The notes under the pieces are model-generated. The model saw only the letters and a program-made list of their open reading frames with translations, did not search any database and was not told the DNA's origin. DNA of 64,000 nt from Cenarchaeum sp. (lineage in GTDB: Archaea > Thermoproteota > Nitrososphaeria > Nitrososphaerales > Nitrosopumilaceae): assembly GCA_965242695.1 (NCBI GenBank), contig CBDESU010000001.1, positions 608,001 through 672,000 of the forward strand. The letters are read 5' to 3'. Positions 3,611 through 55,704 of this stretch are shown here, piece by piece; the stretch's first letter is position 1, and each line of letters opens with the position of its first letter. The translations under genes and the position numbers were made by a program.

Positions 3611-3807
3611 CCGGCGCCTGATCCCCCGTTGGATGTGGCCGCCTTTGCCGGCAGTGCGCGCCGGACGGGATGCCGCTCCGTGCCGGCCCGGCCTCGCGCC
3701 GGCAGCAGGCCTGATGCGCAGCAACCCTTGTTTGCGGCGCTCCCTTGGCAGCGATCGCCGCGGCCGGCGGCGGAAACCCCTATAAGGAGGCCCCGCGCCG
3801 GCCCTTC

Positions 3808-4002
3808 ATGGTCAGTGAGATGGAAAGCGGCAGGTCCGAGTACCTTGAGAAGCTGGACGCCGAGGCTAGGGCCAGGCTGACGCCAGAGGACTGGGAGCGG
3901 GCCGCCCGCATGAACCGCATGTCCCCGGAAGAGCTCGATGCGATTGGAGACAAAGAGTGCGAAGAGCGCCGTCGCCGGGCTAGGTTTGCCGAGATTCCCT
4001 AG
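3808..4002 (+). CDS. Small charged protein, paralog C (64 aa)
   Basis: ctataag TATA at 3780; N-terminus identical to B, C-terminus divergent (MSPEELDAIGDKECEERRRRARFAEIP). Confidence 0.75.
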   Translation: MVSEMESGRSEYLEKLDAEARARLTPEDWERAARMNRMSPEELDAIGDKECEERRRRARFAEIP

Positions 4003-4107: not shown

Positions 4108-5463
4108 CTAGTAGTGGTCGGGATCTAGGCCGTGCGCCGCCTTGTAGCACTCGGCCGACTCTGCGCCGCGGCCCATGCGCGCCAGGACGTCCCCCTTGCC
4201 GGCAAGCGCGTATGCAAAGCGCGGGTCGAACTCTATGGCCCTGTTGTAAAAGTACAGGGCATCGTCGGTGCGGCCGAGCGCCGCGAGCAGCCTTGCCATG
4301 CGGGCGTGTGCCTCTGCATACCTGTCGTCCAGCTTGATCGCCCGGTCGTACGCGGCAAGCGCCTCCTCACTGCGGCCCATCTTGGCGAGCAGGCTACCCC
4401 GCTGAAGGTGTACATCCTCGTCGTACCGGGCCAAGGCCGTCGCCCGGTCATACGCCGCAAGCGCCTCCTCACTGCGGCCCGCCTCGGCGAGCAGTTCGCC
4501 CCTGAGCAGGTGCGCCCTGTGCATCGTGTTGTCAAGGCCGAGCGCCCCGTCGCACGATGCCAGCGCCTCGCCGTGGCGGCCCATGCCTGCCAACAGGTCT
4601 GCCTTGCGCAGGTGCGCCTCGGATAGAAACGGGGCAAGCTCGACCGCACGGCCGTACGCCGCAAGCGCCTCCTCGTCCCTACCCATCCTAGCCAGAGTCT
4701 GGGCCCTGCCAAGGTGCGTGACGGCGCGCCCCGGATCCAGCCCTGCCGCCCGATCGTGGCTGGCAAGCGCCCCCTCGTAGCGGCCCAGGCCTGCGAGCGC
4801 TAGGCCCATCTTTGCGTGCGCCTCCGCACTGTCCGGATTCCCGGCGACCTGTTCCATGCAAAGCTCCAGCGCCCCCTCGTAGCCCTTGCGCGACAGCTCC
4901 CAGAGGCGCATCCCCCAGAATATGTCGCCCTGCAGCAGGCGCATGTCGATGAGCGTGCCGGGAAACGGCGCGGCCAGCCTGAAGGCGACGCGCTCGGTCG
5001 TCCCGTACGCGGCGAGCCTGTCAAGGTCGCCGTACGTCGACGTGTGGACGCGGTCGTGCCTGAACCTGATCAGGATGCCAAAGTCGCAGCGCAGCTGCTC
5101 GTCGCCTTTGAAGGGGTCGTCCATGCCGTGCTCGCGCAGCGCAGCCACGATGGTCTCGATGCTCTGAAAGTTGTACGTGAACGAGACGAGGACGGCCAGG
5201 GGCATGCCGGCGGTGCGGGGCATGCTGACAATGTCGATCGTCAGGCTCGACGGCATGGTGCTGTCGTCCTCGCTCAGCCACAGGGCGATGAGGTGCCTGC
5301 ACAGCTGCTCGATGACCGAGATGAGGGTGGTGGCTATGCTGCGCGGCGCATGCCTTGCATCCGAATCCCGTTCGCGCAGGACTGCGCACAGGTCGTGCAT
5401 TATGTCCTGCAGATTCTGCCCCGTCAGCGCATGCGTGAGGCTGACGACCCTTCTCGTCCTCAT
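4108..5463 (-). CDS. HEPN-domain (putative RNase) + TPR repeat protein
   Basis: ATG at 5463 lies about 25 bp from ttttaata. N-terminal helical domain with LISVIEQLCR and RHDRVH (RxxxxH), then about 8 TPRs. Confidence 0.75.
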   Translation of the reverse strand: MRTRRVVSLTHALTGQNLQDIMHDLCAVLRERDSDARHAPRSIATTLISVIEQLCRHLIALWLSEDDSTMPSSLTIDIVSMPRTAGMPLAVLVSFTYNFQSIETIVAALREHGMDDPFKGDEQLRCDFGILIRFRHDRVHTSTYGDLDRLAAYGTTERVAFRLAAPFPGTLIDMRLLQGDIFWGMRLWELSRKGYEGALELCMEQVAGNPDSAEAHAKMGLALAGLGRYEGALASHDRAAGLDPGRAVTHLGRAQTLARMGRDEEALAAYGRAVELAPFLSEAHLRKADLLAGMGRHGEALASCDGALGLDNTMHRAHLLRGELLAEAGRSEEALAAYDRATALARYDEDVHLQRGSLLAKMGRSEEALAAYDRAIKLDDRYAEAHARMARLLAALGRTDDALYFYNRAIEFDPRFAYALAGKGDVLARMGRGAESAECYKAAHGLDPDHY

Positions 5464-5798
5464 CGGCGAGGCCGGACATGGACGGCTATTAAAACCACTC
5501 CTCGCGAATTTCAGTTCTGTCGAGGCACGCTCGCCGCCGGAAGGGGAGGGGGAGGAGGGCGGATGGGAAGGAGCGAACGGCGGCAGGAGCCGCAGGGCGC
5601 TCGTCGGGCCTGCCAAGCCTCGGCACGGGCGCCCCGTCTCCTGCCCAAAGCAGGCGGCGGCCGGGCTGCGCAGGGCTCCATGCGGCCCGGTTCGCAGTGC
5701 GCCGAACCACTCGTGTCATGTGCCGTGTTGTGCGCCCGGCGGATGCCGTGCCGCCGTTCGCACCGCGGCACGGGGGGCGCCTTCCGGCGGCGCGGGCC

Positions 5799-27241: not shown

Positions 27242-27402
27242 GCGGGGGCGCCGATGCAGCGCTATTTACGCCTTTGGCGGTAGCGGCGGGCCGCCGCCCT
27301 GTGCCGGCGCCGGCATGGTTCGATTGGGCGTGCCTGCCTCCCTGCCTGCCTTGCACATGGCCGCACCGGCAGGTTTAAGCGGGGGCCGTCGGGCGCCGTG
27401 GC

Positions 27403-27903: not shown

Positions 27904-27962
27904 TCTCGTCGAACGCATCGTCGACGACCTCGGGGTCACGCCGCGTCAGTTCTAGCGTCCTA

Positions 27963-29589
27963 TACATAATCCACGAGGGGTTGTGGAAAAAAGCTGACCT
28001 CGTGTGAAAGATTGTTGACAACGTGGGTCAACACCCCCGTCGGCGCATGCGGGTCATGCCAAGGAAAGCAGAGGCACCAAAGGGCGGGGCGTTCCTTCCG
28101 GAGACAAGCGCCGAGGAGCTGCTCACCATGTCAAAGAGTGCCACAAACGGGATCGATGCGATAAGGTACATGGCCATGCACATGAGGAAGATCGGCTGGG
28201 AGATCGACCAGATTGCCGAGGGCTTGGGGCGCAGCCCCGAGACGATCAGGAGATGGCTCACGCGGGCGCACAGGGAGGGCATCGGCGGTGTGCCCCACGT
28301 CAAGAAGGGGACGCTCTGCCGGCTGTCCGTCGAGGAGCGCGGCGAGCTGGCCTGCGACATCGCGACAACGCGCCCGATCGACCACGGCCTTGTGGGCACC
28401 GCATGGGACTACAAGACCGTCCAGATCCACATCAAGAACAAGTTCAAGAGGGAGTACACGTACAACGGCACGCACCGGCTTCTCCAGAGGATGGGCATCC
28501 GCCCGATGGCGCCCCGCCCCGTCCATCCCGACGGCCTCGGCGAGGAGGAGCAGTACGAGTACAAGCGCGCAATGCGGGCCCGCGCCCAGTCGCTCCACAG
28601 GCAGGGCTTCAAGGCGCAGGGCGGCGCCGACGAGGTGCACATCGCCGTCGACGAGCGGCCCACCAAGGGGCTCGGGATGAAGGGAGGCCGTCCCGTGTCC
28701 GTGCCGTCGTCGGTGGCAATGGGCCGCCTTACGTGCTTTGTGGCCCTCTTTGACGGCGCCCTGTACATAATGCGGGCCAAAAAGAACGCCAACACCGACG
28801 AGTTCATAAGGTTCTGCAACATGCTGTTGGAGATCGAGGGCATGGTGCTGCTCTGGGTCGACAACGTAAGGTACCACAAGTCAAAGCGCTTTGAAAAGTA
28901 CCTCGAGGACAACCGCGACCGCCTGCGCGTGTTCTACCTGCCCGAGTACACGTCGCCCCTGGCCGTCGCCGAGACCGAGATGGGCCCCATCAAAAAGGCC
29001 GCCGCCAAGAGGTCGCCAAAGGACAGGGAAGATGTGTGGAAGGCCCTGTGCGAGGCGGCCGCTGCGGATGACCTGCCCGTCAAGCAGCTGTACGGATGGA
29101 TGCGCATCTACGACCCCGATCCCGGTCCGACGGCGATGGCCCCCAAGTACGAGTACGACGGCGACCTGCTCATCGTCAGGTCGGACGCGCCGCCCGAACC
29201 GGCGCCCAAGCGGGGCAGGATCAAGTCGGCGTCTGGCGACGACGGCATCCTGACGTTCGAAGAGTTCAAAAAGATCCCGAAAAGCGTGTTTGACTCCGAC
29301 GGCAACATGCTCAAGCCCTTCCTGATGCTTCCAACAGGAGCGCTGCGCAACATGGCGCCTGGCCTCTACACCCCGTAACGCGCGACGGCCAATCAAGAAT
29401 GCGCGCTGCCGGATGCCTGCCGCCGGCAGCGTTCCCTGTTCCGCAATTGAGCCGTCCGTATGTGCACAACAAAGGTGCGGCAGGACATATCGCTTCCAAC
29501 ATGAGTCGCATTTCTGGACTTGATATTTTTACCCCCTTTCCCATTTTCCACCAATAAAGAAATACCCACATTGGCTCATGGATTACGTA
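27963..29589 (+). mobile_element. IS630-family insertion sequence (1627 bp)
   Basis: TA duplication (27961-27962 / 29590-29591); imperfect terminal IRs TACATAATCCACGAG / TACGTAATCCATGAG extending to about 24 bp; empty site visible in paralogous units. Confidence 0.93.
28056..29378 (+). CDS. IS630-family transposase with C-terminal extension
   Basis: HTH (IAEGLGRSPETIRRWL), AWDY, ADE, WVDNVRYHKS and YLPEYTSPLAVAE DDE motifs. Confidence 0.9.
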   Translation: MPRKAEAPKGGAFLPETSAEELLTMSKSATNGIDAIRYMAMHMRKIGWEIDQIAEGLGRSPETIRRWLTRAHREGIGGVPHVKKGTLCRLSVEERGELACDIATTRPIDHGLVGTAWDYKTVQIHIKNKFKREYTYNGTHRLLQRMGIRPMAPRPVHPDGLGEEEQYEYKRAMRARAQSLHRQGFKAQGGADEVHIAVDERPTKGLGMKGGRPVSVPSSVAMGRLTCFVALFDGALYIMRAKKNANTDEFIRFCNMLLEIEGMVLLWVDNVRYHKSKRFEKYLEDNRDRLRVFYLPEYTSPLAVAETEMGPIKKAAAKRSPKDREDVWKALCEAAAADDLPVKQLYGWMRIYDPDPGPTAMAPKYEYDGDLLIVRSDAPPEPAPKRGRIKSASGDDGILTFEEFKKIPKSVFDSDGNMLKPFLMLPTGALRNMAPGLYTP

Positions 29590-30523: not shown

Positions 30524-31024
30524 ATGGCAGTGCGGCGCGTGCACCTCGACACATGGGCGTTCATGGTGGTCCTCCTCGGGGGCAAGTATGCAAACGTCCT
30601 GATTGATATCATGCGGCAGAGCGGCCCGGGCTTGTACTCACTCGTCGCGTCACAGGCCGCGCTGGGCGAGGCCGACGCCGTAATACTGCGGCGCGGGAAG
30701 GATGCCGCCCAGATGTTCCTCTCACTTCTCGCGCTGCTCTTCGACCACCGGATCGATCCGGGCAGGTGCATGCCGCCCCTTGACGCCGCCGTGCTGGCGA
30801 TCGTCAACGAATTGATGGCCGTGGCCCCCGAGCTGGACATGACCGACAGGATCATACTTGCCCACGCCCTGGCCGATCCGGACTCTGCCTTTTTCATAAC
30901 GGGCGACTACAGGATGCTTAAAAACAACGCTGTCAAGCGATACGAAGAGCGGCTGCAGGCCCAGGGGCGCCGTCGTGAAAAGCTTGTGATTATACGCCCC
31001 ACCGCAGCATCCCACGTCTCTTGA
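30524..31024 (+). CDS. PIN-domain nuclease, copy 2
   Basis: 166 aa, acidic tetrad intact. Confidence 0.85.
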   Translation: MAVRRVHLDTWAFMVVLLGGKYANVLIDIMRQSGPGLYSLVASQAALGEADAVILRRGKDAAQMFLSLLALLFDHRIDPGRCMPPLDAAVLAIVNELMAVAPELDMTDRIILAHALADPDSAFFITGDYRMLKNNAVKRYEERLQAQGRRREKLVIIRPTAASHVS

Positions 31025-31580
31025 TCTCGCCTAGCGCATCGTCGACGACCTCGGGGTCGCGCCGCGTCAGCTCCAGCGCCCTGTCCCTCAACCCTGCCAG
31101 ATCCCACCCGCTGTCCATGTTTAAGTCCAGCATCGTGGTCGCCGCGTCCAGCCAGGCCTTGCTCCTGCCCTCGACCATGCCCAGGAACTCGCCCTCCCGA
31201 AACGACCCGGGCAGGACGGGCTCGGCCGCGGCGTACACGGCGCTGTCCCTGTCTGCAAGCCGGTCGATGGCGTCTGCCATCTCGTACGCCGCCGGCCCGC
31301 CGCCCATGTAAATGTCAAAGTCAAACCCCATGTCCAGCCCAAAGTACAGGGCCGTGTAGGCGTACTGCTGCACCCTGTCGATCACGTCCACGCCCTCCAT
31401 GCCGTCCGCGAGCGGGGGCCCAAACTCTATCAGTCCCTTTGATGCCAGGTACTTTATGAACCGGGCAAGCGGCGGCAGCAGCTCGGCACGGGCGCTCCTG
31501 CCGAGCATGTCGAGGCGCTCCTCGCGCGACTTTCGGGGCGGGTTTACAAGGCGCTCGGGCAGCGCAACCGCAAGGGCCAT
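30990..31580 (-). CDS. SocA/Panacea-like partner, copy 2
   Basis: DRVQQYAY..YFGLDMGFDFDIY..GP resembles the LQKxxY..F..y.yGP signature; WLDAATTM helix. Confidence 0.75.
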   Translation of the reverse strand: MALAVALPERLVNPPRKSREERLDMLGRSARAELLPPLARFIKYLASKGLIEFGPPLADGMEGVDVIDRVQQYAYTALYFGLDMGFDFDIYMGGGPAAYEMADAIDRLADRDSAVYAAAEPVLPGSFREGEFLGMVEGRSKAWLDAATTMLDLNMDSGWDLAGLRDRALELTRRDPEVVDDALGEIKRRGMLRWGV

Positions 31581-32037
31581 GCCGGCGCCCGACGCGCAGG
31601 GCCCAATAAGCCTTTGCGTGCGGGCCGCGCGGGATCACGCACGGAAGGGAGGAACAGCGCCCCCTTCGCCGCTGTGATTCCACTCGGTCGCGGTCGCCGC
31701 CGCCCCGAACCATGGTGTGACTGCGGCGTGGTAAGCGAACCGTGCCGGTGCGGGATGGAAGATGTCGTGCACAGGCCGCCGCACAGAGGCCGTCGTTCGT
31801 GTGGCCCATGCCGGTTGGTCCGTGCGCTGACGCCCTCCGCTCTGCGGGGGCGGCGGCGCCCGCGGCCCCGCCACAGATCGACGCTAGGGATGCGGGCTCT
31901 TGGATGCGGGAAGTAAGGCCGGACCGCCGCCTGCGCACCATGAAAAGGCGCCGCTGCGGGCGGATGGACCCGTGCGATGCCGCCGCCCCGCGGTGTGCCG
32001 CCGGCAGGTTTAAGCGCGGGCCGTCGGGCGCAGGGCC

Positions 32038-32538
32038 ATGGCGTTGCGGCGCGTGCACTTTGACACGTGGGCGTTCATGGAGGTGCTCCTCGGGGGCAAA
32101 TACGCGGATATTCTGGAGGATATCATGCGGCGGAGCGGCCCCGGCTCGTACTCGCTGGTCGCGTGCCAGGCCGCGCTGGGCGAGGCCGACGCCGTCATAC
32201 TGCGGCGCGGGAAGGATGCCGCCCGGATGCTGCTCTCGCTTCTCGCGCTGCTCTTCGACCACCGGATCGATCCCGGCAGGTGCATGCCACCGCTTAATGC
32301 CGCCGTGTTGGCCATAGTCAACGAACTGATGGCTGCGGTTCCCGAGCTTGACATGACCGACAGGATCATACTTGCCCACGCCCTGGCCGATCCAGACTCT
32401 GTCTTTTTCATAACGGGCGACACCAAGATGATCGGCAACGATGCGATCGCACGATACGAAGAACGGCTGCGGAATCAGGGGCGCCGTAGCGCAAAGCTTG
32501 TGGTTGTCGATCCTAGCGAAGCATCCCGCGTCCTTTGA
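32038..32538 (+). CDS. PIN-domain nuclease, copy 3
   Basis: 166 aa, acidic tetrad intact. Confidence 0.85.
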   Translation: MALRRVHFDTWAFMEVLLGGKYADILEDIMRRSGPGSYSLVACQAALGEADAVILRRGKDAARMLLSLLALLFDHRIDPGRCMPPLNAAVLAIVNELMAAVPELDMTDRIILAHALADPDSVFFITGDTKMIGNDAIARYEERLRNQGRRSAKLVVVDPSEASRVL

Positions 32539-33094
32539 TCTCACCGAGCGCATCGTCGACGACCTCGGGGCTGCACGGGATCAATTCGAGCGCCCGGTTT
32601 CTAAGCCTGCGCAGATCCCATCTTCCGTTCATGTTCAGGCAGAGCATCGTGGTAGCTGCACTAACCCACGCCTTGCTCCTGCCCTCGACCATGCCCAGGA
32701 ATTCGCCCTCCCGGAACGACCCGGGCAGGACAGGCTCGGCTTCCTCGTACACGGCGCTGTCCTCGGCAGACAGCCGGTAGATGGCGTCTGCCATCTCGTA
32801 CGCCGCCGGCCCGCCGTTGATGTAAATGTCAAAATCGAACCCCATGTCCAGCCCAAAGTACAGGGCCGTGTAGGCGTACTGCTGCACCCTGTCGACGACG
32901 GCCAGCCCCTCCCTGCCGGGCGCGAGCGGGGGCCCAAACTCCATCAGGCCCCTCGACGCCAGGTACTTTATGAACCGGGCAAGCGGCGGCAGCATCTCGG
33001 CGCGGGCGCTCCTGCCGATCATGTCGAGGCGCTCCTCGCGCGACTTTCGGGGCGGGTTTACGAGGCGCTCGGGCAGCGCAACCGCAAGGGCCAT
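32513..33094 (-). CDS. SocA/Panacea-like partner, copy 3
   Basis: 193 aa paralog. Confidence 0.75.
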   Translation of the reverse strand: MALAVALPERLVNPPRKSREERLDMIGRSARAEMLPPLARFIKYLASRGLMEFGPPLAPGREGLAVVDRVQQYAYTALYFGLDMGFDFDIYINGGPAAYEMADAIYRLSAEDSAVYEEAEPVLPGSFREGEFLGMVEGRSKAWVSAATTMLCLNMNGRWDLRRLRNRALELIPCSPEVVDDALGEIKGRGMLR

Positions 33095-33552
33095 GCCGGC
33101 GCCCGACACGCAGGCCCAATAAGGCTTTGCATGCGGGCCGCGCGGGATCTTGCACTGGAATAAGCCGTGCGCACCATTTCACCGCCGCCGCGATCCTGCG
33201 CGGGCGGTCGCGTCGCGACGAATCGGGACATGGCTGGGCGTGGCAAGCGAGCCGTGCCGGTGCGGGGTGGCGCAGGCCGCGCGCAGGCTGCCGCGCGTAG
33301 GCCGCAGTTACTCGCGTGGCCTGTCGGTCGGACCGCACGCCGCCGCCCTTTTCGATCTGCGGGGGCGGCAGCGCCCGCGTCCCCGCCATCGATCTGCGCC
33401 AGGGCCGCGGGCGCTGGCATGGGAGGAGGTAGGGCCGGAACCGCCTCGCTGCGCGCCGTGAAAGGCGCCGTTGCGGGCGAGTGGTGTCGCGGGATGCCGC
33501 TGCGCGCGGGCGGCGCCGGCAGGCTTGAGCGCGGGCCGCCGGGCGCCGTGGC

Positions 33553-34053
33553 ATGGCGGTGAGGCGCGTGCACCTCGACACGTGGGCGTTCATGGTGGTG
33601 CTCCTCGGCGGCAAGCTTGCGAACGTCCTAGGGGAGATCATGCGGCGGAGCGGCCCGGGCTCGCACTCACTCGTCGCGTCACAGGCCGCGCTGGGCGAGG
33701 CCGACGCCGTCATACTGCGGCGCGGGAGCGATGCAGCCCGGATGCTGCTCGCGCCGCTCGCACTGCTCGCCGACCACCGGATCGATCCGGGTCGGTGCAT
33801 GCCGCCGCTTGACGCCGCCGTGCTTGCAATCGTCAACGATCTGATGGCCATCGCCCCCGAGCTAGACATGACAGACAGAATAATACTTGCCCACGCCTTG
33901 GCTGATCCAGACTCTGTCTTTTTCATAACGGGCGACCGTGCCATGCTTAGGAACGACGACATACCACTATACGAGGAGCGGCTTCGGGCCCAGGGGCGTC
34001 GCAACGCAAAGCTTGTGATTATCAAGCCGTCCGAAACATACCACGTCTCTTGA
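33553..34053 (+). CDS. PIN-domain nuclease, copy 4
   Basis: 166 aa, tetrad intact; TATA altered to gcttgag. Confidence 0.85.
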   Translation: MAVRRVHLDTWAFMVVLLGGKLANVLGEIMRRSGPGSHSLVASQAALGEADAVILRRGSDAARMLLAPLALLADHRIDPGRCMPPLDAAVLAIVNDLMAIAPELDMTDRIILAHALADPDSVFFITGDRAMLRNDDIPLYEERLRAQGRRNAKLVIIKPSETYHVS

Positions 34054-34609
34054 TCTCGCTGAACGCATCGTCGACTACCTCGGGGTCGCGCCGCGTCAGT
34101 TCCAATGTCCTGCTTTTCAACCTGTCCAGATCCCGCCAGCTGCCTATGTTCAGGTCCAGCATCGTGGTCGCCGCGTCCAGCCACGCCTTGCTCCTGCCCT
34201 CGACCATGCCCAGGAACTCGCCCTCCCTGAACGACCCGGGCAGGATGGGCTCGGCCGCGGCATATACGGCGCTGTCCTTGTCGGCGAGCCGGTCGATTGC
34301 GTCGGCCATCTCGTACGCCGCCGGCCCGCCGCCCATGTAAATGTCAAAGTCAAACCCCATGTCCAGCCCAAAGTACAGGGCCGTGTAGGCGTACTGCTGC
34401 ACCCTGTCGATCACGTCCACGCCCTCCATGCCGTCCGCGAGCGGGGGCCCAAACTCCATCAGTCCCTTTGATGCCAGGTACTTTATGAACCGGGCAAGCG
34501 GCGGCAGCATCTCGTCGCGCGCGCTCCTGCCGATCATGTCGAGGCGCTCCTCGCGCGACTTTCGTGGCGGGTTTACGAGGCGCTCGGGAAGCGCGACCGC
34601 AAGGGCCAT
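34022..34609 (-). CDS. SocA/Panacea-like partner, copy 4
   Basis: 195 aa paralog. Confidence 0.75.
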   Translation of the reverse strand: MALAVALPERLVNPPRKSREERLDMIGRSARDEMLPPLARFIKYLASKGLMEFGPPLADGMEGVDVIDRVQQYAYTALYFGLDMGFDFDIYMGGGPAAYEMADAIDRLADKDSAVYAAAEPILPGSFREGEFLGMVEGRSKAWLDAATTMLDLNIGSWRDLDRLKSRTLELTRRDPEVVDDAFSEIKRRGMFRTA

Positions 34610-34745
34610 GCCGGCGCCCGACGCGCAGGGCCCAATAAGCATTTGCATGCGGGCCGCGCGGGATGTCGCACTAGAAGGATCGCGCGTCACTTCACCGCCG
34701 CCGCGATCCAGTATGGGCTGCCGCGCCGCGCCGAACAGGGACATG

Positions 34746-34920
34746 GCTAGGCGCAGCTAGGCGCAGCTAGGCGCAGCTAGGCGCAGCAAGCGGGCCCTGC
34801 CGGTGCGGGATGGGGCAAGCCGTGAGCAGCCCGCCGCCACTGTCCGCGCGGTCCCAACCCGTTAGACTACCGCCGCCGTCCGCGCGGTCCCAACCCGTTA
34901 GACTACCGCCGCCGTCCGCG
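34746..34920. repeat. 10-bp x4 (gctaggcgca) and 36-bp x2 tandem repeats in the intergenic spacer
   Basis: Directly visible. Confidence 0.8.
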
Positions 34921-35116
34921 ATCCGCGGGATCAGCAGCGCCTGCAGCCCCGCAATCGACCGATGCCCGGGCCGCGGGCGCCGGAATGTGGGAAGTGGGAC
35001 AGGAGCTGCCACGCTGCGCGCCGTGGAAGGCGCATTGCGGGCAAACAGACTCGCGGGATGCCGCCGCGCGCGGGAGGCGCCGGCAGGTTTAAGCGCGGGC
35101 CGCCGGGCGCAGGGGC

Positions 35117-35617
35117 ATGGTACGGCGGCGCGTGCACTTTGACACATGGGCGTTCATGGAAGTGATCCTCGGAGGCAAGCATGCGAACGTCCTGAGGGAG
35201 ATCATGCGGCGGAGCGGCCCAGATTCGTACTCGCTGGTCGCGTCCCGGGCCGCTCCGGGTGAGGCCGACGCCGTCATACTGCGACGCGGGAAGGATGCCG
35301 CCAGGATGCTCCTCTCACTCCTTGCACTGCTCGCCGACTATAGGGTGGATCCGGGCAGGTGCATGCCGCCCCTTGACGCCGCCGTGCTGGCGATCGTCAA
35401 CGAGTTGATGGATGCGGTTCCCGAACTGGACATGACCGACAGGATCATACTCGCGCACGCCCTGGCCGACCCAGACTCGACCTTCCTCATAACGGGCGAC
35501 TATGCGATGCTTGAAAACAAGGCCATCGTACAATACGAGGAATGGCTGCGGTCTCAGGGGCGCCGCAACGAAAAGCTTGTGATTATCAAGCCGTCCGAAA
35601 CATACCGCGTCTCTTGA
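35117..35617 (+). CDS. PIN-domain nuclease, copy 5
   Basis: 166 aa, tetrad intact. Confidence 0.85.
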   Translation: MVRRRVHFDTWAFMEVILGGKHANVLREIMRRSGPDSYSLVASRAAPGEADAVILRRGKDAARMLLSLLALLADYRVDPGRCMPPLDAAVLAIVNELMDAVPELDMTDRIILAHALADPDSTFLITGDYAMLENKAIVQYEEWLRSQGRRNEKLVIIKPSETYRVS

Positions 35618-36173
35618 TCACGTCGAACGCATCGTCGACGACCTCGGGGTCGCGCCGCGTCAGTTCCAGCGTCCTGGCTTTCAATCCCTCCAGATCCCAG
35701 CCGCCGCGCAGCCTCAGTGCGATCATCGTGTTTGCCGCATCCAGCCACGCCTTGCTCCTGCCCTCGACCATGCCCAGGAACTCGCCCTCCCGAAACGACC
35801 CGGGCAGGACGGGCTCGGCCGCGGCGTACACGGCGCTGTCCTTGCCGGCGAGCCGGTCGATGGCGTCGGCCATCTCGTACGCCGCCGGACCGCCGTTGAT
35901 GTGAATGTCAAAGTCGAACCCCATGTCCAGCCCAAAGTACAGGGCCGTGTAGGCGTACTGCTGCACCCTGTCGATCACGTCCACGCCCTCCATGCCGTCC
36001 GCGAGCGGGGGCCCAAACTCCATCAGTCCCTTTGATGCCAGGTACTTTATGAACCGGGCAAGCGGCGGCAGCATCTCGTCGCGGGCGCTCCTGCCGATCA
36101 TGTCTAGGCGCTCCTCGCGCGACTTTCGGGGCGGGTTTACGAGGCGCTCGGGCAGCGCGACCGCAAGGGCCAT
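35586..36173 (-). CDS. SocA/Panacea-like partner, copy 5
   Basis: 195 aa paralog. Confidence 0.75.
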   Translation of the reverse strand: MALAVALPERLVNPPRKSREERLDMIGRSARDEMLPPLARFIKYLASKGLMEFGPPLADGMEGVDVIDRVQQYAYTALYFGLDMGFDFDIHINGGPAAYEMADAIDRLAGKDSAVYAAAEPVLPGSFREGEFLGMVEGRSKAWLDAANTMIALRLRGGWDLEGLKARTLELTRRDPEVVDDAFDVIKRRGMFRTA

Positions 36174-36373: not shown

Positions 36374-37930
36374 CTACTGGAACGGGTCGATGAACGGGCA
36401 GTTCACGATGTGGTCAGAGTCCATGGGCCTTGCGATCGAGACGGTTACGAGGCCGTCGGCGACCATCGCGTCGATGTCGGCCTTTGTCTCGAGCAAGGAC
36501 GCCTCGGACGGGTCGCCCCACGTGACTAGGTATATCCTCCACATGGGCGAGTACGTCTCGTCGCCTAGCGCCGCTGTCGCGATGCCGGGCTGGAACCCGA
36601 GGGGCCCAGTCCCGGCGATGCCGTTGGTGAACTGGTACAGGTCGACGGCCGCCGGGCTGGCGATCATCGATGCGCTCGTCGGCGCGCTCACGACCCCCAT
36701 CATGTCGGCGGGCCCCGCGGGCGTCGCATCCGTTACGATATAGTACGACGTGCGGCCGTCGGGCCCCCAGCCCCTGTGGGCCACGAACGTGACGGTCATC
36801 GCGTCGGTGTCGATGTCGATCACCTGTCCTCCCCCGTACGGGGTGTCGTCTGCCAGCGCCGCGTCCTCCTTTACGGCCATCTGGCCGCCGGGCCACACTA
36901 TATGCGGCATGTTGAGGACTACGGGGAGCTCGGTGAGGACGACGTCGCCGTCGGCCTCTGCCTCCAGCACGTCTGCCTCGGACGTGAGCATGCGCGGCTC
37001 GGCCCCCTCGTTCCACGTGACGTGCACGTGGCCCGTCAGGGCGCTGTACTCGCCGGCCTGCTCGGGCGTGGACGTAAAGACCTCGCCTTGGTGGCCGTGC
37101 ACTCCGGGTCCCTCTATGCCGTTGGTGAACATGTACGTCGTCGACAGGGCCTCGTCCGGCGCGTCGGCCAGGACGGGCGCAAGCTCTACGTTCCAACCCT
37201 TTGCCTCGCTGATGATCTGCGCATGCGTCGGGTCGCTCGAGTCGGTCGTAATGTAGTAGACCGGCTCTCCCTCGTAGTATCCCATGCTCATGGGAATGAC
37301 GGCAGGCACGTTGGCCCTTGACAGGCGCAGCGTCGGCGTCCATTCTCCGTCCTTGTCCTTCATCTTGTCCTTGTCCTTCATCTTGTCCTTCATCCTCTCC
37401 TCGTCCTTGTACTTTTCCTTCTTGTCCTTCATCTTGTCCTTCATCCTCTCCTCGTCCTTGTACTTTTCCTTCTTGTCCTTCATCTTGTCCTTGTCCTTCA
37501 TCCTCTCCTCGTCCTTGTACTTTTCCTTCTTGTCCTTCATCTTGTCCTTGTCCTTCATCCTCTCCTCGTCCTTGTACTTTTCCTTCTTGTCCGCCATAGC
37601 GTCGTCGGACTGCTCGGCGCCGGGCGCCGTGGCCGCCTCGTTGGCCGCCCTGGCCGCCGCGATGCGATCGTCCGCGCTAGGCTCGGCGTCCCCGCCGCCC
37701 ACGGAGGATGCGCGCTCGGCGGCCGCCTCCCTCATGGACGCCTCGAACGCCTTGCGCCCGCCGGGGTACTCGGAGCACAGCCGGTCGCCGCACACCTGGT
37801 CCCGCGTGATGCCGTACGCCCCGGCCGCATGCGCGCTCTCCGGCGCGCCGCCTGCCAGCCCGTACGCAAGCCCCACGGATAGGAGGGGCAGCACTGCAAG
37901 TGCCAATAGACTCTTTCTCGTTGAATTCAT
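36374..37930 (-). CDS. Exported thaumarchaeal-type protein with K/D/E/M-rich repeat linker and duplicated C-terminal domain
   Basis: Signal peptide MNSTRKSLLALAVLPLL; VCGDRLCSE motif; two related YYI(T/V)TD..YxFTNGIxGxG..GxQ halves. Confidence 0.85.
   Translation of the reverse strand: MNSTRKSLLALAVLPLLSVGLAYGLAGGAPESAHAAGAYGITRDQVCGDRLCSEYPGGRKAFEASMREAAAERASSVGGGDAEPSADDRIAAARAANEAATAPGAEQSDDAMADKKEKYKDEERMKDKDKMKDKKEKYKDEERMKDKDKMKDKKEKYKDEERMKDKMKDKKEKYKDEERMKDKMKDKDKMKDKDGEWTPTLRLSRANVPAVIPMSMGYYEGEPVYYITTDSSDPTHAQIISEAKGWNVELAPVLADAPDEALSTTYMFTNGIEGPGVHGHQGEVFTSTPEQAGEYSALTGHVHVTWNEGAEPRMLTSEADVLEAEADGDVVLTELPVVLNMPHIVWPGGQMAVKEDAALADDTPYGGGQVIDIDTDAMTVTFVAHRGWGPDGRTSYYIVTDATPAGPADMMGVVSAPTSASMIASPAAVDLYQFTNGIAGTGPLGFQPGIATAALGDETYSPMWRIYLVTWGDPSEASLLETKADIDAMVADGLVTVSIARPMDSDHIVNCPFIDPFQ
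37345..37592. repeat. Charged tandem repeats (MKDKDKMKDKKEKYKDEER)
   Basis: Directly visible, about 4 units of variable length. Confidence 0.85.
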
Positions 37931-38140
37931 TGCGGCACGGCGCGCCGGGTCGCTAAAAAGAGTTGCCCCAGGTGCGGCCGGCGCCCGCCGCAGGGCGCCA
38001 CGCGCAGGCGCGCGGCCCGGCCATGCGCCGCCGCCGCAGGCGGCCCGTGCGCCGCCGCGCGGCCCGGCCGGCCAGGGCGCGGCGGCAGCGGCGATCGCCG
38101 GCAGGGCGGGTTTATAACGGGCCGCTCTTCCGCACCGGCC

Positions 38141-38518
38141 ATGTCGGATGAACGCAGCTATGCGACCATGATCTGCTGCATGGACGGAAGGATCCACGGC
38201 CCGCTCGTCGAGTGGACCCGGAAGAAGGCCAACGTCAACTACGTCGATGCGGTCACCGAGCCGGGCGCGGACAAGATGCTCTCGCACTCGCCAGAGGTGG
38301 CCGATCAGCTACGGAGGAAGGCAAAGGGCTCGATAAGGGCGCGCGGCTCCAAGCTCCTCGTGGTGGCCGGCCACGCGGGGTGCGCGGGCAACCCCGTCAG
38401 CGAAGAGCAGCACCGCAAGGACGTTGCGGACAGCGTAAAGGTCGTGCAGGGATGGGACACCGGCGTCGACGTGGTCGGCGTCTGGGTCGGCGACGACCGT
38501 ACGGTCTTTCCCGTATAG
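38141..38518 (+). CDS. Beta-class carbonic anhydrase-like protein
   Basis: CMDGR and HxxC zinc ligands, TEPG; tttataa TATA at 38111. Confidence 0.8.
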   Translation: MSDERSYATMICCMDGRIHGPLVEWTRKKANVNYVDAVTEPGADKMLSHSPEVADQLRRKAKGSIRARGSKLLVVAGHAGCAGNPVSEEQHRKDVADSVKVVQGWDTGVDVVGVWVGDDRTVFPV

Positions 38519-38683: not shown

Positions 38684-39459
38684 GCCGCGGCGGCCGCGCT
38701 GCCGAGCACGACGTCGTAGGTTCCCATGAATATCTTGGCGGCGACCACGAACAGGACGCCGGCGACCAGGACTCGCAGGTACGTGTCCCTGACCCTCTTG
38801 GAGAGGCGCGCGCCGAGCATGCCGCCGGCGAACGCGCCGCCCATCATGTACAGGGCGTGCGTGAGGTTCATGTCGCCGAGTATCGCGTGCGCGGCAAGGC
38901 TCGAGGACGAGACGAACAGGAGTATGAACTGCGACGTCGGCGCGGCCCGCCACGCGGCCATTCCCATGACGACGACCAGGAGGGGCATGAAAACGACGCC
39001 GCCGCCGACGCCGAACAGGCTCGACAGGACGCCGGCAAAAAAGCTCGCGCCGGCGGCCATTACCATGACCAGGCCGGCGCGCCTGCGCCTGCCCGCCTGC
39101 CCGGCGCGCCTGCGCAGCAGCATGTACGCGGCGGACGCGACGATCACCATGGCGAAGAAGAACTTGAACATGTCGGGGGATATGTCAGACGAGATGAGCG
39201 CGCCGACTGCGATTCCCGGGACCGCCATGAGGCCTAGCGTGAGCCCCTCCCTGTAGTCGATCCTCTTCTGGCGGTAGTACGATATGGTCGACGACGACGA
39301 GTTTGCCAGTACGGCGAACAGGCTGTTGGTCGCCGCTATCGGGGGCGGGACTCCGGCGAGCGTGAGGACGGGGACGATGATCACGCCGCCGCCGAGGCCG
39401 ACTATGGAGCCGAGGGCGGCCGCGGCGGCGGCCAGGCCGGCCATCCACAGGTCGATCAC
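38653..39459 (-). CDS. TauE/SafE (TSUP) family sulfite exporter
   Basis: GSIVGLGGGVIIVPVL and SLFGVGGGVVFMPLL repeats; about 8 TM; tttata box upstream. Confidence 0.9.
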   Translation of the reverse strand: MIDLWMAGLAAAAAALGSIVGLGGGVIIVPVLTLAGVPPPIAATNSLFAVLANSSSSTISYYRQKRIDYREGLTLGLMAVPGIAVGALISSDISPDMFKFFFAMVIVASAAYMLLRRRAGQAGRRRRAGLVMVMAAGASFFAGVLSSLFGVGGGVVFMPLLVVVMGMAAWRAAPTSQFILLFVSSSSLAAHAILGDMNLTHALYMMGGAFAGGMLGARLSKRVRDTYLRVLVAGVLFVVAAKIFMGTYDVVLGSAAAAAVASAAVAHP

Positions 39460-39586
39460 GGCGCGGCCTGCGGGGGGGCCGTATAAACAGCATGCGGGCG
39501 GCGGGCGATGGGGCGGCCGCCGCGGCCTCGGGGCCTCGCGCCTGCCAAGCGAAGCCCGTATATGGAGGGGGGATGCGGCAGGCTGC

Positions 39587-40030
39587 GTGAGCGTTGCCGT
39601 AGGGACAAAAAGGCCGGCGCAGCGGAGCGCGCAGGCCGCATCTGGACTGGAGGCGGGCCGGGCCGGCTCGGCGCTGTCGCAGGAGGCCAGGGGCGACATC
39701 CACGAGGTGCGCGCCGTGCTCAGGGCGCTCATGGAAGATCAGCCGGCGCACGTGATGGCGAAGCTAAGGGCGCGCCTCGATGACCTCTTGGACGCCCGCC
39801 TGGACGCCCGCATAGACGACAACATAGACGCCCGCATAGACGCCCGCATAGACGCCCGCGTGTACGACCACCTAGACGATATCATGGATGCGCGCATGGA
39901 TGAGCGCGCGGCCGGCTTCAGGACCAGCGCGCACGAGGGCGGATACGACATAGTAGAGGTGTACAGGTACGATGTCGCGAGGCACAGCCCGATGTCCGGC
40001 AGCTGGCCGCGCGATCGGGCCTCCAAGTAG
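39587..40030 (+). CDS. Coiled-coil protein with DARI tetrapeptide repeats, paralog 1
   Basis: GTG about 25 bp after gtatat; near-identical to 40504..41010. Confidence 0.7.
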   Translation: MSVAVGTKRPAQRSAQAASGLEAGRAGSALSQEARGDIHEVRAVLRALMEDQPAHVMAKLRARLDDLLDARLDARIDDNIDARIDARIDARVYDHLDDIMDARMDERAAGFRTSAHEGGYDIVEVYRYDVARHSPMSGSWPRDRASK

Positions 40031-40073
40031 GCATCGCATGCGCTGCCAACGCAATCCTTTTGACGGCGTGCGC

Positions 40074-40181
40074 CCCTGCGGAGACTCCTCGCATGCTGGG
40101 CCGTCCCGGCGCGGGCCCTAGAACCGTTCGGAGGGCAGGGCAAGCCCTGCGGAGACTCCTCGCATGCTGGGCCGTCCCGGC
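40074..40181. repeat. 37-bp perfect direct repeat flanking a 34-bp unique insert (site 2)
   Basis: ccctgcggagactcctcgcatgctgggccgtcccggc at 40074-40110 and 40145-40181. Confidence 0.9.
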
Positions 40182-40503
40182 ACTTGATGCTGATGCGCCG
40201 CCTGCCCGCCCATGCCGGCCGGGAGCCCCGCCCACTTTAGGGATCGACCCTAGCTTGCGCCGCCGATCATGCGGCATGCAACGCCGTAGCCCGGCGTGCC
40301 TTGGCATGCCGCCCGATCCGCACCGACGCACCGCCTCACGGTCCAGATGCTTGCGCGAGCCAAGGATGTTGCGATCGGGTTGCTCTGCCCGATGCGATCG
40401 CGCGGGCCGGATGCGGCCTGGCCTTGGCAGCTGCGCGCGTGCGGGCCGGGCCGCGATCTTGCCAAGCGAAGCCCATATATGGAGGGGGGGTGCGGCAGGC
40501 TAC

Positions 40504-41010
40504 GTGAGCGTTGCCGTAGAGACGAAAAGGCCGGCGCAGCGGAGCGCGCAGGCCGCATCCGGACTGGAGGCGGGCCGGGCCGGCTCGGCGCTGTCGCAGG
40601 AGGCCAAGGGCGACATCCACGAGGTGCGCGCCGTGCTCAGGGCGCTTATGGAAGATCAGCCGGCGCACGTGATGGCGAAGCTAAGGGCGCGCCTCGATGA
40701 CCTCTTGGACGCCCGTCTGGACGCCCGCATAGACGACAACATAGACGCCCGCATAGACGCCCGCATAGACGCCCGCATAGACGCCCGCATAGACGACAAC
40801 ATGAACGCTCGCCTAGACGCCCGCATAGACGCCCGCGTGTACGACCACCTAGACGATATCATGGATGCGCGCATGGATGAGCGCGCGGCCGGCTTCAGGA
40901 CCAGCGCGCACGAGGGCGGATACGACATAGTAGAGGTGTACAGGTACGATGTCGCGAGGCACAGCCCGATGTCCGGCAGCTGGCCGCGCGATCGGGCCTC
41001 CTCCAAGTAG
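40504..41010 (+). CDS. Coiled-coil protein with DARI repeats, paralog 2 (expanded repeat)
   Basis: catatat TATA; about 20 extra residues in the repeat tract. Confidence 0.7.
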   Translation: MSVAVETKRPAQRSAQAASGLEAGRAGSALSQEAKGDIHEVRAVLRALMEDQPAHVMAKLRARLDDLLDARLDARIDDNIDARIDARIDARIDARIDDNMNARLDARIDARVYDHLDDIMDARMDERAAGFRTSAHEGGYDIVEVYRYDVARHSPMSGSWPRDRASSK

Positions 41011-41267
41011 GCATCGCATGCGCGGCCTCTGCACTCCACTTGGCGGCATGCGCGGGGGAATTCCATGCGCACTGTACTCGTCTAGGCACTTGATGCTGGA
41101 GCGCCGCCCGCCGGCCCACACTGGGCGCGAACTCTGCACACTTTGGGGATCAGCCCTACCTTGCGTCGCCGATCATGCGGCATGCAATGCCGCAACCCTT
41201 GCAACTTTGCCGTGGCGCCCGAGCTTGCCGAGCGCATCACCGCGCTAGGAATACACACTGGCATGTT

Positions 41268-43428
41268 TCATATCTTGGCGGCCCTGTCGTACGCGGCGAG
41301 CGCCTCGGCGTGGCGCCCGAGCTTGCCGAGCGCATCGCCGCGCCCGGCATGCCCCGATGCAATCTCAGAGTCGATCTCCACGGCCCTGTCGTACGCGGCG
41401 AGCGCCTCGGCGTGGCGCCCGAGCTTGGAGAGCATTTCGCCGCGCCCGGCATGCCCCGATGCAATCTCAGAGTCGATCTCCACGGCCCTGTCGTACGCGG
41501 CGAGCGCCTCGGCGTGGCGCCCGAGCTTGGAGAGCATTTCGCCGCGCCCGGCATGCCCCGATGCAATCTCCGAGTCGATCTCCACGGCCCTGTCGTACGC
41601 GGCGAGCGCCTCGGCGTGGCGCCCGAGCTTGCCGAGCGCATCGCCGCGCCCTGCATGCGACAGGACATATCCGCCGTCGATCTCCACGGCCCTGTCGTAC
41701 GCGGCGAGCGCCTCGGCGTGGCGCCCGAGCTTGCCGAGCGCATCGCCGCGCCCGGCATTGCCCCGATGCAATCTCCGAGTCGATCTCCACGGCCCTGTCG
41801 TACGCGGCGAGCGCCTCGGCGTGGCGCCCGAGCTTGGAGATCATTTCGCCGCGCCCGGCATGCCCCGATGCAATCTCCGAGTCGATCTCCACGGCCCTGT
41901 CGTACGCGGCGAGCGCCTCGGCGTGGCGCCCGAGCTTGCCGAGCGCATCGCCGCGCCCGGCATGCCCCGATGCAATCTCCGAGTCGATCTCCACGGCCCT
42001 GTCGTACGCGGCGAGCGCCTCGGCGTGGCGCCCGAGCTTGCCGAGCGCATCGCCGCGCCCTGCATGCGACAGGACATATCCGCCGTCGATCTCCACGGCC
42101 CTGTCGTACGCGGCGAGCGCCTCGGCGTGGCGCCCGAGCTTGCCGAGCGCATCGCCGCGCCCGGCATGCCCCGATGCAATCTCCGAGTCGATCTCCACGG
42201 CCCTGTCGTACGCGGCGAGCGCCTCGGCGTGGCGCCCGAGCTTGCCGAGCGCATCGCCGCGCCCGGCATGCGATAGGACGTATCCGGCATCGATCTCCAC
42301 GGCCCTGTCGTACGCGGCGAGCGCCTCGGCGTGGCGCCCGAGCTTGCCGAGCGCATCGCCGCGCCCTGCATGCGACAGGACGTATCCGCCGTCGATCTCC
42401 ACGGCCCTGTCGTACGCGGCGAGCGCCTCGGCGTGGCGCCCGAGCTTGCCGAGCGCATCGCCGCGCCCGGCATGCCCCGATGCAATCTCCGAGTCGATCT
42501 CCACGGCCCTGTCGTACGCGGCGAGCGCCTCGGCGTGGCGACCGAGCTTGGAGAGCATTTCGCCGCGCCCGGCATGCCCCGATGCAATCTCCGAGTCGAT
42601 CTCCACGGCCCTGTCGTACGCGGCGAGCGCCTCGGCGTGGCGCCCGAGCTTGGAGAGCATTTCGCCGCGCCCGGCATGCCCCGATGCGATCCCGGTATCG
42701 ATCTCCACGGCCCTGTCGTACGCGGCGAGCGCCTCGGCGTGGCGGCCGAGCCATGCCAGCGCATCCCCGTTGCATGCTGCTATGACCGACGTCCGTTCGC
42801 CGGGACCGATGCCGTCGCACCGCTTGACGACGGCCTCGTAGCACTCGCGCGGCGGCGGCAGCTGCCGGCTTGCCTCGAACCGCTCGGCCGCCCTGGCCTT
42901 CGACATGTCCATTATGACGAGAGCCTCGGGCCATGCCGCAAGCATTATTCTGGCGAACTCCTCCACCGTCCAATACGAGATGCGACCGTCGATGAGCGCA
43001 TCGGCCATGGCGTGGACGACCGCATTGCGCTCCGGCGTCAGGCGGCCCAGGGCGGCGGCCATCTCCTTGGTGAGGATGCGGCCCATGCCGCACCTGTCGA
43101 GGACTGACCTGATGTCGTCGACCGACGAGATGTTCGTGTCCGCCGCGACGATATCGACCCATTCCATGCTCCTGCTGCGCTCAAAGGTGTCCCGCCGGAC
43201 GACCGCCGCGGCCTTGTCCTCCTCGGGGTGCTCCCTCAGGTAGGCGGCCAGGACGTACCTACATATCTGCTCGATCGCCGTCACAAGCCTGACGACCAGC
43301 ATGTTGAGGTCGTCTGGCTTGCAGCTGCCGAGCAATACGACGAGGCGGTAGAGCCTGTCGAACACCACTACCAGGCCACCGGGCGGCGAGGCTGCCGCCA
43401 TGCGAACGATAAACCACCTGCCGCCCAT
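41268..43428 (-). CDS. HEPN + 15 near-identical TPR repeat protein; +1 frameshift near 41758 (error or pseudogene)
   Basis: LVTAIEQICR and RNAVVH motifs; 102-bp repeats; cggcattgcccc versus consensus cggcatgcccc; gtataag TATA. Confidence 0.8.
41275..42760. repeat. 102-bp tandem repeat x15 (TPR)
   Basis: GRHAEALAAYDRA occurs 15 times. Confidence 0.92.
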
Positions 43429-55605: not shown

Positions 55606-55704
55606 CGGTAGGCGCGGCGGCCGCGCCGCTGACATGCGCGCGGCGGCGGTCACGATGGGCTTAATATGGCGCGCTGGCGGCGCTGGTTTGAGGGGCAGCA
55701 AGCG

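Follow-up and report, generated by a model that had tools for sequence, protein, structure and literature searches.

A frameshifted HEPN-TPR gene with near-identical repeats and a linked helical partner in a sponge-associated ammonia-oxidising archaeon: a candidate toxin- or defence-type module

HEPN domain of the gene

The window analysed here, a stretch of 64,000 nucleotides (C1:608001-672000) from a Cenarchaeum genome of 3.89 Mb in two contigs, carries on its minus strand a gene (41268..43428) that encodes a HEPN domain joined to tetratricopeptide repeats (TPRs). The gene, recognised from the list of open reading frames (ORFs), the sequence and the translations, is broken by one extra base. 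Its ORF starts at the ATG at 43428, with an alternative open start further upstream (GTG, 43488); the stop codon of the continuation frame is the TGA at 41268-41270. Three parts follow one another on the minus strand: the HEPN core domain at residues ~18-162 (42943..43377), delimited by an AlphaFold2 model, a fold search and the invariant E, R and H; a helical linker (42772..42942); and 15 TPR units of 102 bp (34 amino acids) each (41271..42771), delimited by Tandem Repeats Finder, Pfam TPR_1 and unit tables. Direct reading of the sequence beyond the stop codon finds the leftover of one more repeat unit on the same strand (41211..41243). Two copies of a small partner gene lie on the plus strand, copy 1 at 39602..40030 and copy 2, which is convergent with the HEPN-TPR gene, at 40513..41010. 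The HEPN-TPR gene and its partner are considered here as a candidate toxin- or defence-type module.

The active-site signature of the HEPN domain is intact. It consists of E53-x3-R57 (E53-Q-I-C-R57; E53 at 43272-43270 and R57 at 43260-43258) and R134-N-A-V-V-H139 (R134 at 43029-43027 and H139 at 43014-43012). In an alignment of 21 in-genome paralogues (A1), which are 14-42% identical to the window protein, the columns of E, R and H are the only three that are invariant. When 96 representatives are added to A1, E is kept in 116 of the 117 members and R and H in 115 each. An R four residues past the E occurs in 108 of the 117 members, and the residue after the motif R is H in 94 and N in the window protein. 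A preliminary description of this DNA, made from the sequence alone, had proposed an N-terminal HEPN-like domain with the motif E..RNAVVH. The RNAVVH part is present (R134, H139), but the E adjacent to it is not conserved, and the invariant acid is E53.

The AlphaFold2 model of the domain (predicted local distance difference test, pLDDT, 90.4; predicted template modelling score, pTM, 0.86) contains helices at 6-20, 26-54, 109-126 and 136-150 and three short helices at 67-100. R134 and H139 correspond to model positions 122 and 127, at the end of helix 109-126, and E53 and R57 lie within helix 26-54. As defined in the excerpted text of PMC3710099, HEPN domains carry an Rx4-6H motif that closes helix 3, with N, D or H following the R; helix 2 bears an acidic Ex3[KR] motif and is separated from helix 3 by an insert, which in the window model is formed by the three short helices. 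The HEPN assignment is firm because this layout agrees with the published definition. By motifs and modelled fold, the N-terminal part is assigned as a HEPN domain with a complete catalytic signature, and metal-independent RNase activity is predicted for it.

Comparison of the model with 48,161 solved chains by VIA-align placed HEPN-domain proteins in at least 11 of the top 13 rows, with Z scores of 7.5-8.6 that lie within the helical-bundle background and count only in combination with the motifs. The upper rows are 1wwp (8.6), 2hsb (8.3), 5yep (8.2) and the sacsin HEPN domain (7.9), followed by two HepT toxins (7.8), 1ufb (7.8) and the AbiA C-terminal domain (7.7), and then by 1jog, 1ylm and 4nqf (7.6 each) and Csm6 (7.5). 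The leading rows of Foldseek were HepT and Csm6, at E values of at least 0.7 and none at or below 1e-3. In addition, 13 of 24 scanned distant family members match Pfam HEPN_RiboL-PSP (PF18735) at E ≤1e-4, three above and ten below its curated cut-off of 28.4 bits. The three are P0075, P0083 and P0095, with 33.0, 35.7 and 32.7 bits, respectively, and they match the A1 profile at E values of 1e-22 to 1e-18. The fold search, the motifs and these distant members together bear out the HEPN-like domain of the preliminary description.

Direct database searches with the window protein weigh on the other side. No Pfam HEPN family matches its residues 1-233 at E ≤10, its near paralogues likewise escape the PF18735 model, and the protein is not a member of PF18735 under the Pfam rule; it is therefore filed as a divergent relative of the RiboL-PSP family and not as a member. 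The sole NCBIfam row for the N-terminal part is a chance-level match to ChrE (E = 0.18), and PADLOC returned no matching defence model. A first hhalign comparison with a three-sequence RiboL-PSP template gave no match; a further hhalign comparison with RiboL-PSP proteins brought the E, R and H motifs into line (P = 0.0046), with a reported probability of only 7.7%. The nearest named clusters in the ESM Atlas are RiboL-PSP-HEPN, with a score of 0.87 that serves as a lead only. From these comparisons it is concluded that the domain, with its catalytic signature intact, is best regarded as a divergent relative of RiboL-PSP-HEPN. RiboL-PSP-HEPN, as characterised in the excerpted text of PMC3710099, resembles the window family in its four-helix core with an insert, in Ex3[KR] in helix 2 and in R-N/H-x3-H at the end of helix 3. 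The table of that paper gives for it a fusion with endoRNase L-PSP and bacterial ParB operons, and lists neither a TPR fusion nor archaea.

In a search of 301 genomes of the phylum, PF18735 had a match in three. The genome of the window also contains two stand-alone RiboL-PSP-HEPN proteins that lack TPRs, at C2:451234-451668 (50.3 bits) and C1:1437350-1437790 (40.9 bits), which both exceed the Pfam cut-off. For Pfam HEPN_LA2681 this genome gave no match, in a weak search whose control also matched in no genome.

The helical linker between the HEPN domain and the array (minus strand) appears, from profile and model helices, to be a degenerate TPR-like cap. A1 profile positions 156-191 match designed and natural TPR chains, and the model has helices at 155-171 and 181-194. 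The solved structures matched in a profile search with A1 were all TPR-like designs, and the matches were confined to the final 40 positions of the profile.

The repeat array, its frameshift and its paralogues

Tandem Repeats Finder reports a single array at 41279-42769 with a period of 102, 14.6 copies, 91% matches and a score of 2392. Pfam TPR_1 (E = 2.8e-69, 226.8 bits) and TPR_2 (E = 3.2e-57) match the array, in ten stretches over the first 556 residues. The unit register fits the Pfam model, since residues 487-517 correspond to model positions 2-32 and G8, A20 and A27 are kept. The repeats are thus classed by their sequence as canonical TPRs, that is, 34-residue helix-turn-helix units. 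Unit 1 is divergent. The preliminary description had divided the following units into three types, A (SEI with EMLS), B (SEI with DALG) and C (GYV with DALG); retyping of units 2-15 reproduces its order exactly (A A B C C B C B A B C A A B), the last B unit being incomplete. The fourth combination, GYVLS with EMLS, is never seen among the units.

The units are near-identical and vary almost only at two blocks, as had been described and as the repeat search and column counts now establish. Among the 13 full units (2-14, in canonical TPR numbering), 24 of the 102 nucleotide columns are variable; 21 of these fall inside the two blocks, and the three elsewhere are synonymous third positions. Mean pairwise nucleotide identity is 0.90 overall and 99.0% outside the blocks, and mean pairwise residue identity is 0.86 (nine units). 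The blocks comprise TPR positions 32-34 and 1-3 (SEI-ASG versus G/A-GY-VLS) and 9-12 (EML/IS versus DALG), so that both lie in helix A and the preceding inter-repeat loop. According to the excerpted text of Magliery and Regan (PMC1261162), the most variable positions of the TPR concave face are 2, 5, 9, 12, 13, 33 and 34. Five of these seven positions (2, 9, 12, 33 and 34) vary in the window array, and positions 5 and 13 are constant.

The most uniform arrays of the genome belong to HEPN-linked genes. The genome contains 68 Tandem Repeats Finder rows of period 102 and more than 140 TPR matches. When its arrays are ranked by mean unit identity, the top 13 (0.61-0.92) all lie within or adjoining HEPN ORFs, and the maximum among TPR-only genes is 0.60. 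Positions 32-34 and 1-14 hold 89% of the residue entropy in the six most uniform arrays versus 57% in the 40 others (Mann-Whitney p = 1.3e-4, which overstates the significance because the arrays are related). Synonymous variants cluster in the same part of the array as non-synonymous ones, and the ratio of the two is equal in the variable and constant parts (Fisher p = 0.23). The array data therefore point to cassette-like exchange with a very uniform helix B, short of proven diversifying selection. Outside the window, C1:1,098,000-1,241,000 is a region of ~140 kb that is dense with dozens of TPR-only genes, whose units are only 33-60% identical to one another, unlike the uniform arrays of the HEPN-linked genes.

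Repeat number also differs between relatives. An orthologue-like metagenome relative, 73% identical in its N-terminal part, possesses only ~3 TPR units, which are less uniform, versus 15 in the window gene; this difference suggests a fast change of repeat number. In a 3.7-Mb genome of the same genus (G004), unit identity reaches at least 0.60 in 8 of 16 fetched loci. The contigs of four sequencing runs over the window array are collapsed, so that individual repeat order is merged in them.

The frameshift consists of one extra base, an A on the coding (minus) strand, between units 10 and 11 (41758..41759). All other units read GGGGCATGCC and the frameshift unit reads GGGGCAATGCC, with an extra T on the plus strand at 41758/41759; the reading frame is open on either side of it. 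The preliminary description had already pointed to this T as a base to be checked in reads. When contigs from four runs were compared with 41707-41808, one of 113 nt from run X5 matched with zero differences, extra base included, at a depth of 4.3. The contigs of X1, X2 and X4 all lack it; they are ambiguous at 41758 because four other units have the same 102 bases without the extra base, and they may derive from those units. X5 is probably the source of the assembly and hence not independent of it. The frameshift is backed by reads of one run, and fixation in populations is not implied. Split HEPN-TPR loci with two adjacent ORFs also occur on C1 at 1756769/1757212, 1844613/1845116, 513717/512980 and 249318/248071. 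These loci reflect either frequent decay in the family or assembly insertion/deletion errors within the repeats.

The preliminary description missed both the paralogues of the gene and its linked partner. A tblastn search combined with an iterated hidden Markov model (HMM) search found 28 HEPN-TPR ORFs at ~25 loci in the genome of the window. Matches of the A1 profile number 29 in this genome, 32 in G004, 12 in a further species of the genus (G002, 3.2 Mb) and three in another genus; the two small genomes of the window's genus (1.8-2.0 Mb) have none. Three genomes match A1 in a sample of 401 genomes of the phylum. Among 1.84 billion representative proteins there are 226 matches at E ≤1e-3. Of 75 members with a tail behind the HEPN domain, 51 have TPRs by the unit HMM; 22 of the remaining 24 were scanned with Pfam, and all 22 match TPR families. 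A word-indexed homologue search gave a single outside relative. The window gene thus appears to belong to a new family of modules of the toxin or defence type.

The linked partner gene and the proposed working of the module

Clustering of the ORFs within 3 kb of all paralogues gave a family of small ORFs that lie immediately 3' of the HEPN-TPR genes, mostly on the opposite strand. A partner HMM was built from 18 flank ORFs and searched on all 34,672 genome ORFs of at least 60 residues. It found 25 members at 14 loci, with 1-4 copies per locus. Every member follows a HEPN-TPR gene on its 3' side, 19 of them in convergent and 6 in the same orientation, and the rest of the genome has none; the share of the genome equally close to a HEPN ORF is 5.1%. 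As the seeds were drawn from the flanks, the fair count is the 4 of the 14 loci, the window's included, that were found genome-wide as non-seeds. In G004, 15 of 19 matches of the partner alignment adjoin HEPN matches, the other four sharing one identical weak score, and by local HMM the partner is present at 7 of the 16 fetched HEPN loci. No partner match at E ≤1e-3 was found in G002.

In the window, copy 1 lies inside ORF 39284-40030 (partner HMM and alignment) and copy 2 inside ORF 40060-41010 (Tandem Repeats Finder, partner HMM and AlphaFold2). They match the partner HMM at E values of 1.9e-17 and 3e-20, respectively, which may be inflated by composition because the match rests mainly on the periodic repeat region; copy 2 is not a seed. 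Both ORFs fit the family in place, orientation, duplication and the 12-bp tandem repeat, which in copy 2 encodes tetrapeptides and spans 40708-40855 (Tandem Repeats Finder). The two copies are 98% identical over the aligned part, and copy 1 has fewer tetrapeptide repeats. Partner proteins have an SVT(K/R)Q-like N-terminus, a core of 4- to 12-residue tandem repeats and in most cases a C-terminal VGI(H/T)RD..R.Y. The ratio of non-synonymous to synonymous substitution rates (dN/dS) between partner paralogues is 0.20-0.96 and stays below 0.7 in 8 of 10 pairs, and the reading frame is accordingly constrained. A Pfam scan of 16 partner proteins gave chance-level rows only and no family. AlphaFold2 modelled copy 2 as essentially one helix of ~85 residues (50-134), the central part of which exceeds a pLDDT of 90, with a pTM of 0.34, and Foldseek with this model gave one chance-level row. 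Across loci, the number of TPR units rises with partner length (Spearman 0.70, n = 14).

Together with these data, it can be hypothesised that the window gene is one frameshifted copy of a two-gene toxin- or defence-type module, which has expanded in this lineage of sponge-associated ammonia-oxidising archaea and in which a TPR control part and a partner ligand would govern a HEPN RNase. This reading has about an even chance of being correct. The analysis shows the domain identities, catalytic signature, paralogue expansion, repeat uniformity, partner linkage and coding constraint of the partner; the RNase activity, the binding, the direction of regulation and the defence role are inferred. 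A single HEPN domain must pair to act, and in enzymes such as Csm6, RNase L and HepT it is restrained by a sensor part or an antitoxin. The first gene of the module would encode a divergent RiboL-PSP-type HEPN domain, a predicted metal-independent RNase, joined to a TPR superhelix whose near-identical units may be maintained by unequal crossing-over or gene conversion. The second gene, which lies 3', is usually convergent and often occurs in 2-4 tandem copies, would encode a small protein, in essence one extended alpha-helix composed of tandem repeats of tetra- to dodecapeptides. In the HEPN-TPR protein, regulation or sensing would fall to the array, and the HEPN domain would be the effector. 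At rest, the helix of the partner may lie in the TPR groove and block formation of an active HEPN dimer. If the partner were lost, displaced or out-competed, for example upon virus infection or module loss, the RNase would be freed, would cut RNA and would stop growth. The concave-face variation, which is confined to helix A and the inter-repeat loop, and a partner likewise built of repeats could jointly give each paralogous pair its own specificity.

A stronger version of this working is a lock and key of repeat on repeat. Each TPR unit would read one repeat period of the partner through the varying residues of helix A and the loop, and unequal crossing-over in both genes would produce new orthogonal RNase-inhibitor pairs. 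This version is speculative and quite unlikely. If true, it would account for the ~14 coexisting modules per genome and for part of the genome-size doubling in sponge symbionts. More generally, a partner that binds the array would be a natural case of modular recognition between a repeat protein and a repeat peptide, and would offer a tractable way to study recombination-born specificities in archaea.

Several points beyond the database searches above weigh against the proposed module. Partner matches are present at only 14 of ~25 loci, and the four paralogues nearest to the window gene have none. The window partners match the HMM mainly via the periodic core, and their C-terminal motif aligns loosely. 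In a stricter set of 11 adjacent full-length pairs, the correlation of unit number with partner length is 0.59 (Spearman, p = 0.057), which is a hint only, given that the paralogues are related. Convergent orientation is unusual in toxin-antitoxin pairs. The window copy itself is frameshifted, and at a number of further family loci the gene is divided between two ORFs. The array variation could equally well stem from cassette exchange without selection, because synonymous and non-synonymous variants are equally concentrated. Placement of the partner in the groove is pure inference.

Rival readings and known systems compared

The most serious alternative is that the gene is a decaying pseudogene, whose three unit types are a neutral by-product, devoid of adaptive meaning, of recent tandem amplification and of gene conversion between two ancestral units. 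It would accord with the frameshift at 41758, which in the X5 contig has a depth fitting a single-copy path, with the leftover unit past the stop codon, the split loci, the shared location of synonymous and non-synonymous variants and the absence of the gene from the syntenic place in G004 and G002. However, the catalytic residues and the entire N-terminal domain are intact, and the frame is open except for the single extra base. That base is possibly specific to the sample or an error, X5 being the probable source of the assembly, and many intact paralogues, as well as a second species, show the same pattern of uniform arrays. Decay of the window copy is less likely than not, but has to be taken seriously.

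Another possibility is an NLR-like (NOD-like receptor) sensor-effector that lacks an NTPase. In this case the array would bind a foreign ligand from a virus or competitor, crossing-over among the three unit types would reprogram it, and the small neighbour gene would be unrelated, a guard or a decoy. The comparison with fungal NLRs, which the preliminary description had drawn, is upheld in that the units are nearly identical and their variation is limited to helix A and the loop. In fungal NLRs, WD, ankyrin (ANK) and TPR repeats have more than 85% internal identity, which is rare elsewhere, and the variable TPR sites lie on the concave face (Dyrka et al. 2014, excerpted text of PMC4986451). 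The window array resembles them in a unit identity of ~85% or more over at least 100 residues, in concave-face variation and, as hinted at by the ~3 units of the 73%-identical relative versus 15 here, in differences of repeat number. The absence of the gene from the syntenic slot in two related species fits the same picture. In contrast to fungal NLRs, the window protein has no nucleotide-binding oligomerisation domain (NOD) or NTPase domain, is archaeal, carries a HEPN RNase as its predicted effector and has a linked partner. Neither NACHT nor NB-ARC was found in it; Pfam detects only TPR families, and the HEPN domain runs straight into the array. Moreover, only three unit types exist, no significant excess of non-synonymous change is seen, and the tight link to a repeat-bearing helical partner offers a self-encoded ligand as the alternative. 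With ~25 paralogues and this linked partner, the probability of a self-encoded ligand is no lower than that of a foreign one. The foreign-ligand sensor is rather unlikely, and a combined reading would keep it with the partner as guard or decoy. A change of ligand specificity through repeat shuffling, as such, is plausible.

It is very unlikely that the protein is a 'eukaryotic-like' TPR protein for interaction with the sponge host. Host handling is the usual interpretation of TPR expansions in sponge symbionts. The DNA is present in sponge metagenomes, the genome is rich in TPR matches, and the enriched TPR gene groups of sponge-associated Thaumarchaeota have been interpreted as host interaction factors (excerpted text of PMC6697440 and PMC7848895). 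Against this, the protein opens with a HEPN domain bearing the full catalytic signature, an effector typical of intracellular conflict; its linked small partner gene is toxin-module-like, and TPR-only genes of the same genome do not have uniform arrays. A TALE- or PPR-like reader of nucleic acid, with the unit types as a code, which the preliminary description had named as a more speculative alternative, is hardly credible. In its favour are the 34-residue repeats, their discrete types and the RNase fusion; against it, the array scores 226.8 bits with TPR_1 and 23.2 bits with PPR (below the cut-off of 25) and has no TALE match, the types number three and not four, and the variable residues occupy known peptide-binding positions of TPRs (excerpted text of PMC1261162).

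With regard to known systems, the proposed two-gene module resembles HEPN-MNT (HepT-MntA) toxin-antitoxin systems of type II/VII, which likewise combine a single HEPN toxin domain with a small neighbour gene; the HepT structures 5yep, 7bxo, 7ae2 and 8xdj are among the best fold matches of the window HEPN domain. Unlike in HEPN-MNT, the neighbour is no nucleotidyltransferase and belongs to no Pfam family, is mostly convergent and not operonic, and the predicted toxin carries a TPR array. A HEPN-MNT pair at the window locus was considered and rejected, the neighbours being DUF371, an SNF2 helicase and the helical partner.

RNase L consists of ankyrin repeats, a pseudokinase and a KEN/HEPN RNase, must dimerise and responds to a small-molecule ligand. 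It resembles the window protein in combining a repeat sensor with a HEPN-type RNase, a likeness in working and not in descent. It differs in repeat type, domain order, eukaryotic origin and its small-molecule ligand, and no homology is claimed beyond the HEPN fold.

The LA2681, C6orf70 and DZIP3 families also join HEPN to TPRs (Anantharaman et al. 2013, PMC3710099), and their descriptions in the excerpted text of that paper mention neither uniform repeats nor a helical repeat partner. Fusions of HEPN with TPRs and uniform fungal TPR arrays are therefore known, and what appears to be new is the regulatory layout of this candidate HEPN toxin- or defence-type module, as well as its partner family. 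At the level of listings and abstracts, the literature on HEPN-TPR fusions, on Cenarchaeum or sponge TPRs and on sponge-symbiont HEPN gave neither a link between these subjects nor a description of the partner. The word HEPN does not occur in the sponge Thaumarchaeota papers PMC6697440 and PMC7848895. The combination of a HEPN effector, uniform arrays like those of fungal receptors and a tandem-peptide partner has no description in the literature searched. A sizeable part of the TPR expansion in this archaeal symbiont bears a predicted RNase in front and a linked partner, which would point to modules of internal conflict or antiviral defence instead of host handling.

The genome contains a small-subunit (SSU) rRNA gene, which scores 1450 bits with the archaeal model, and an archaeal amoA gene. 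Stretches of the HEPN-TPR gene and its flanks recur in runs labelled sponge metagenome and in runs from two coded organisms. The archaeal SSU, amoA and the presence of the DNA in sponge metagenomes identify the genome as that of an ammonia-oxidising archaeon with a sponge habitat. The G+C content near the HEPN-TPR gene is ~0.69-0.71. One flank of the gene holds DUF371 and an SNF2 helicase, and the other holds the partner copies, followed by TauE, a carbonic-anhydrase-like gene and DUF7482. In G004, with an SNF2 gene 89% identical and a DUF371 gene 78% identical as synteny markers, the slot beside DUF371 is filled by a 1839-residue protein with Ig-like domains and an IS66 transposase, and the HEPN-TPR gene is absent. 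It is likewise absent from the syntenic place in G002. The module therefore occupies a variable spot.

A second HEPN-TPR paralogue of the window, which belongs to another subfamily, lies on the minus strand at 4108..5616 (tblastn and HMM matches, Pfam TPR). At its 3' side a small convergent ORF is found on the plus strand (3745..4002), which flank clustering places in a separate small-ORF cluster adjoining three paralogues. Scans for tRNA and Rfam families across the window gave no matches.

Other parts of the window also hold repeated or mobile elements. At 30524-36173, four tandem copies of a gene pair are spaced by ~1.5 kb. The first ORF of the pair is PIN-like, 166 residues long and on the plus strand, with Pfam PIN scores of 19.7-24.2 bits and one copy above the cut-off of 23.6. 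The second is convergent and overlapping, has 195-240 residues and matches no Pfam family. This pair may be a further amplified module of toxin type. The stretch 20019-29378 contains a complete Type ISP restriction-modification gene of 1619 residues (Mrr_cat_2, helicase, methylase and Type_ISP_C) and a DDE_3 transposase at 28023-29378. Its G+C content of 0.50-0.61, versus ~0.69 elsewhere, is low, and the stretch is probably acquired DNA. Two giant ORFs are present, one of 3021 residues on the minus strand (5799-14864), in which 13 stretches of NHL repeats and a region resembling SGL are recognised, and one of 2060 residues on the plus strand (55666-61848) with a weak NHL match. The DUF7482 protein on the minus strand at 36374-38287 has internal tandem repeats rich in lysine and aspartate, which read KEKYKDEERMKDKDKM in the translation.

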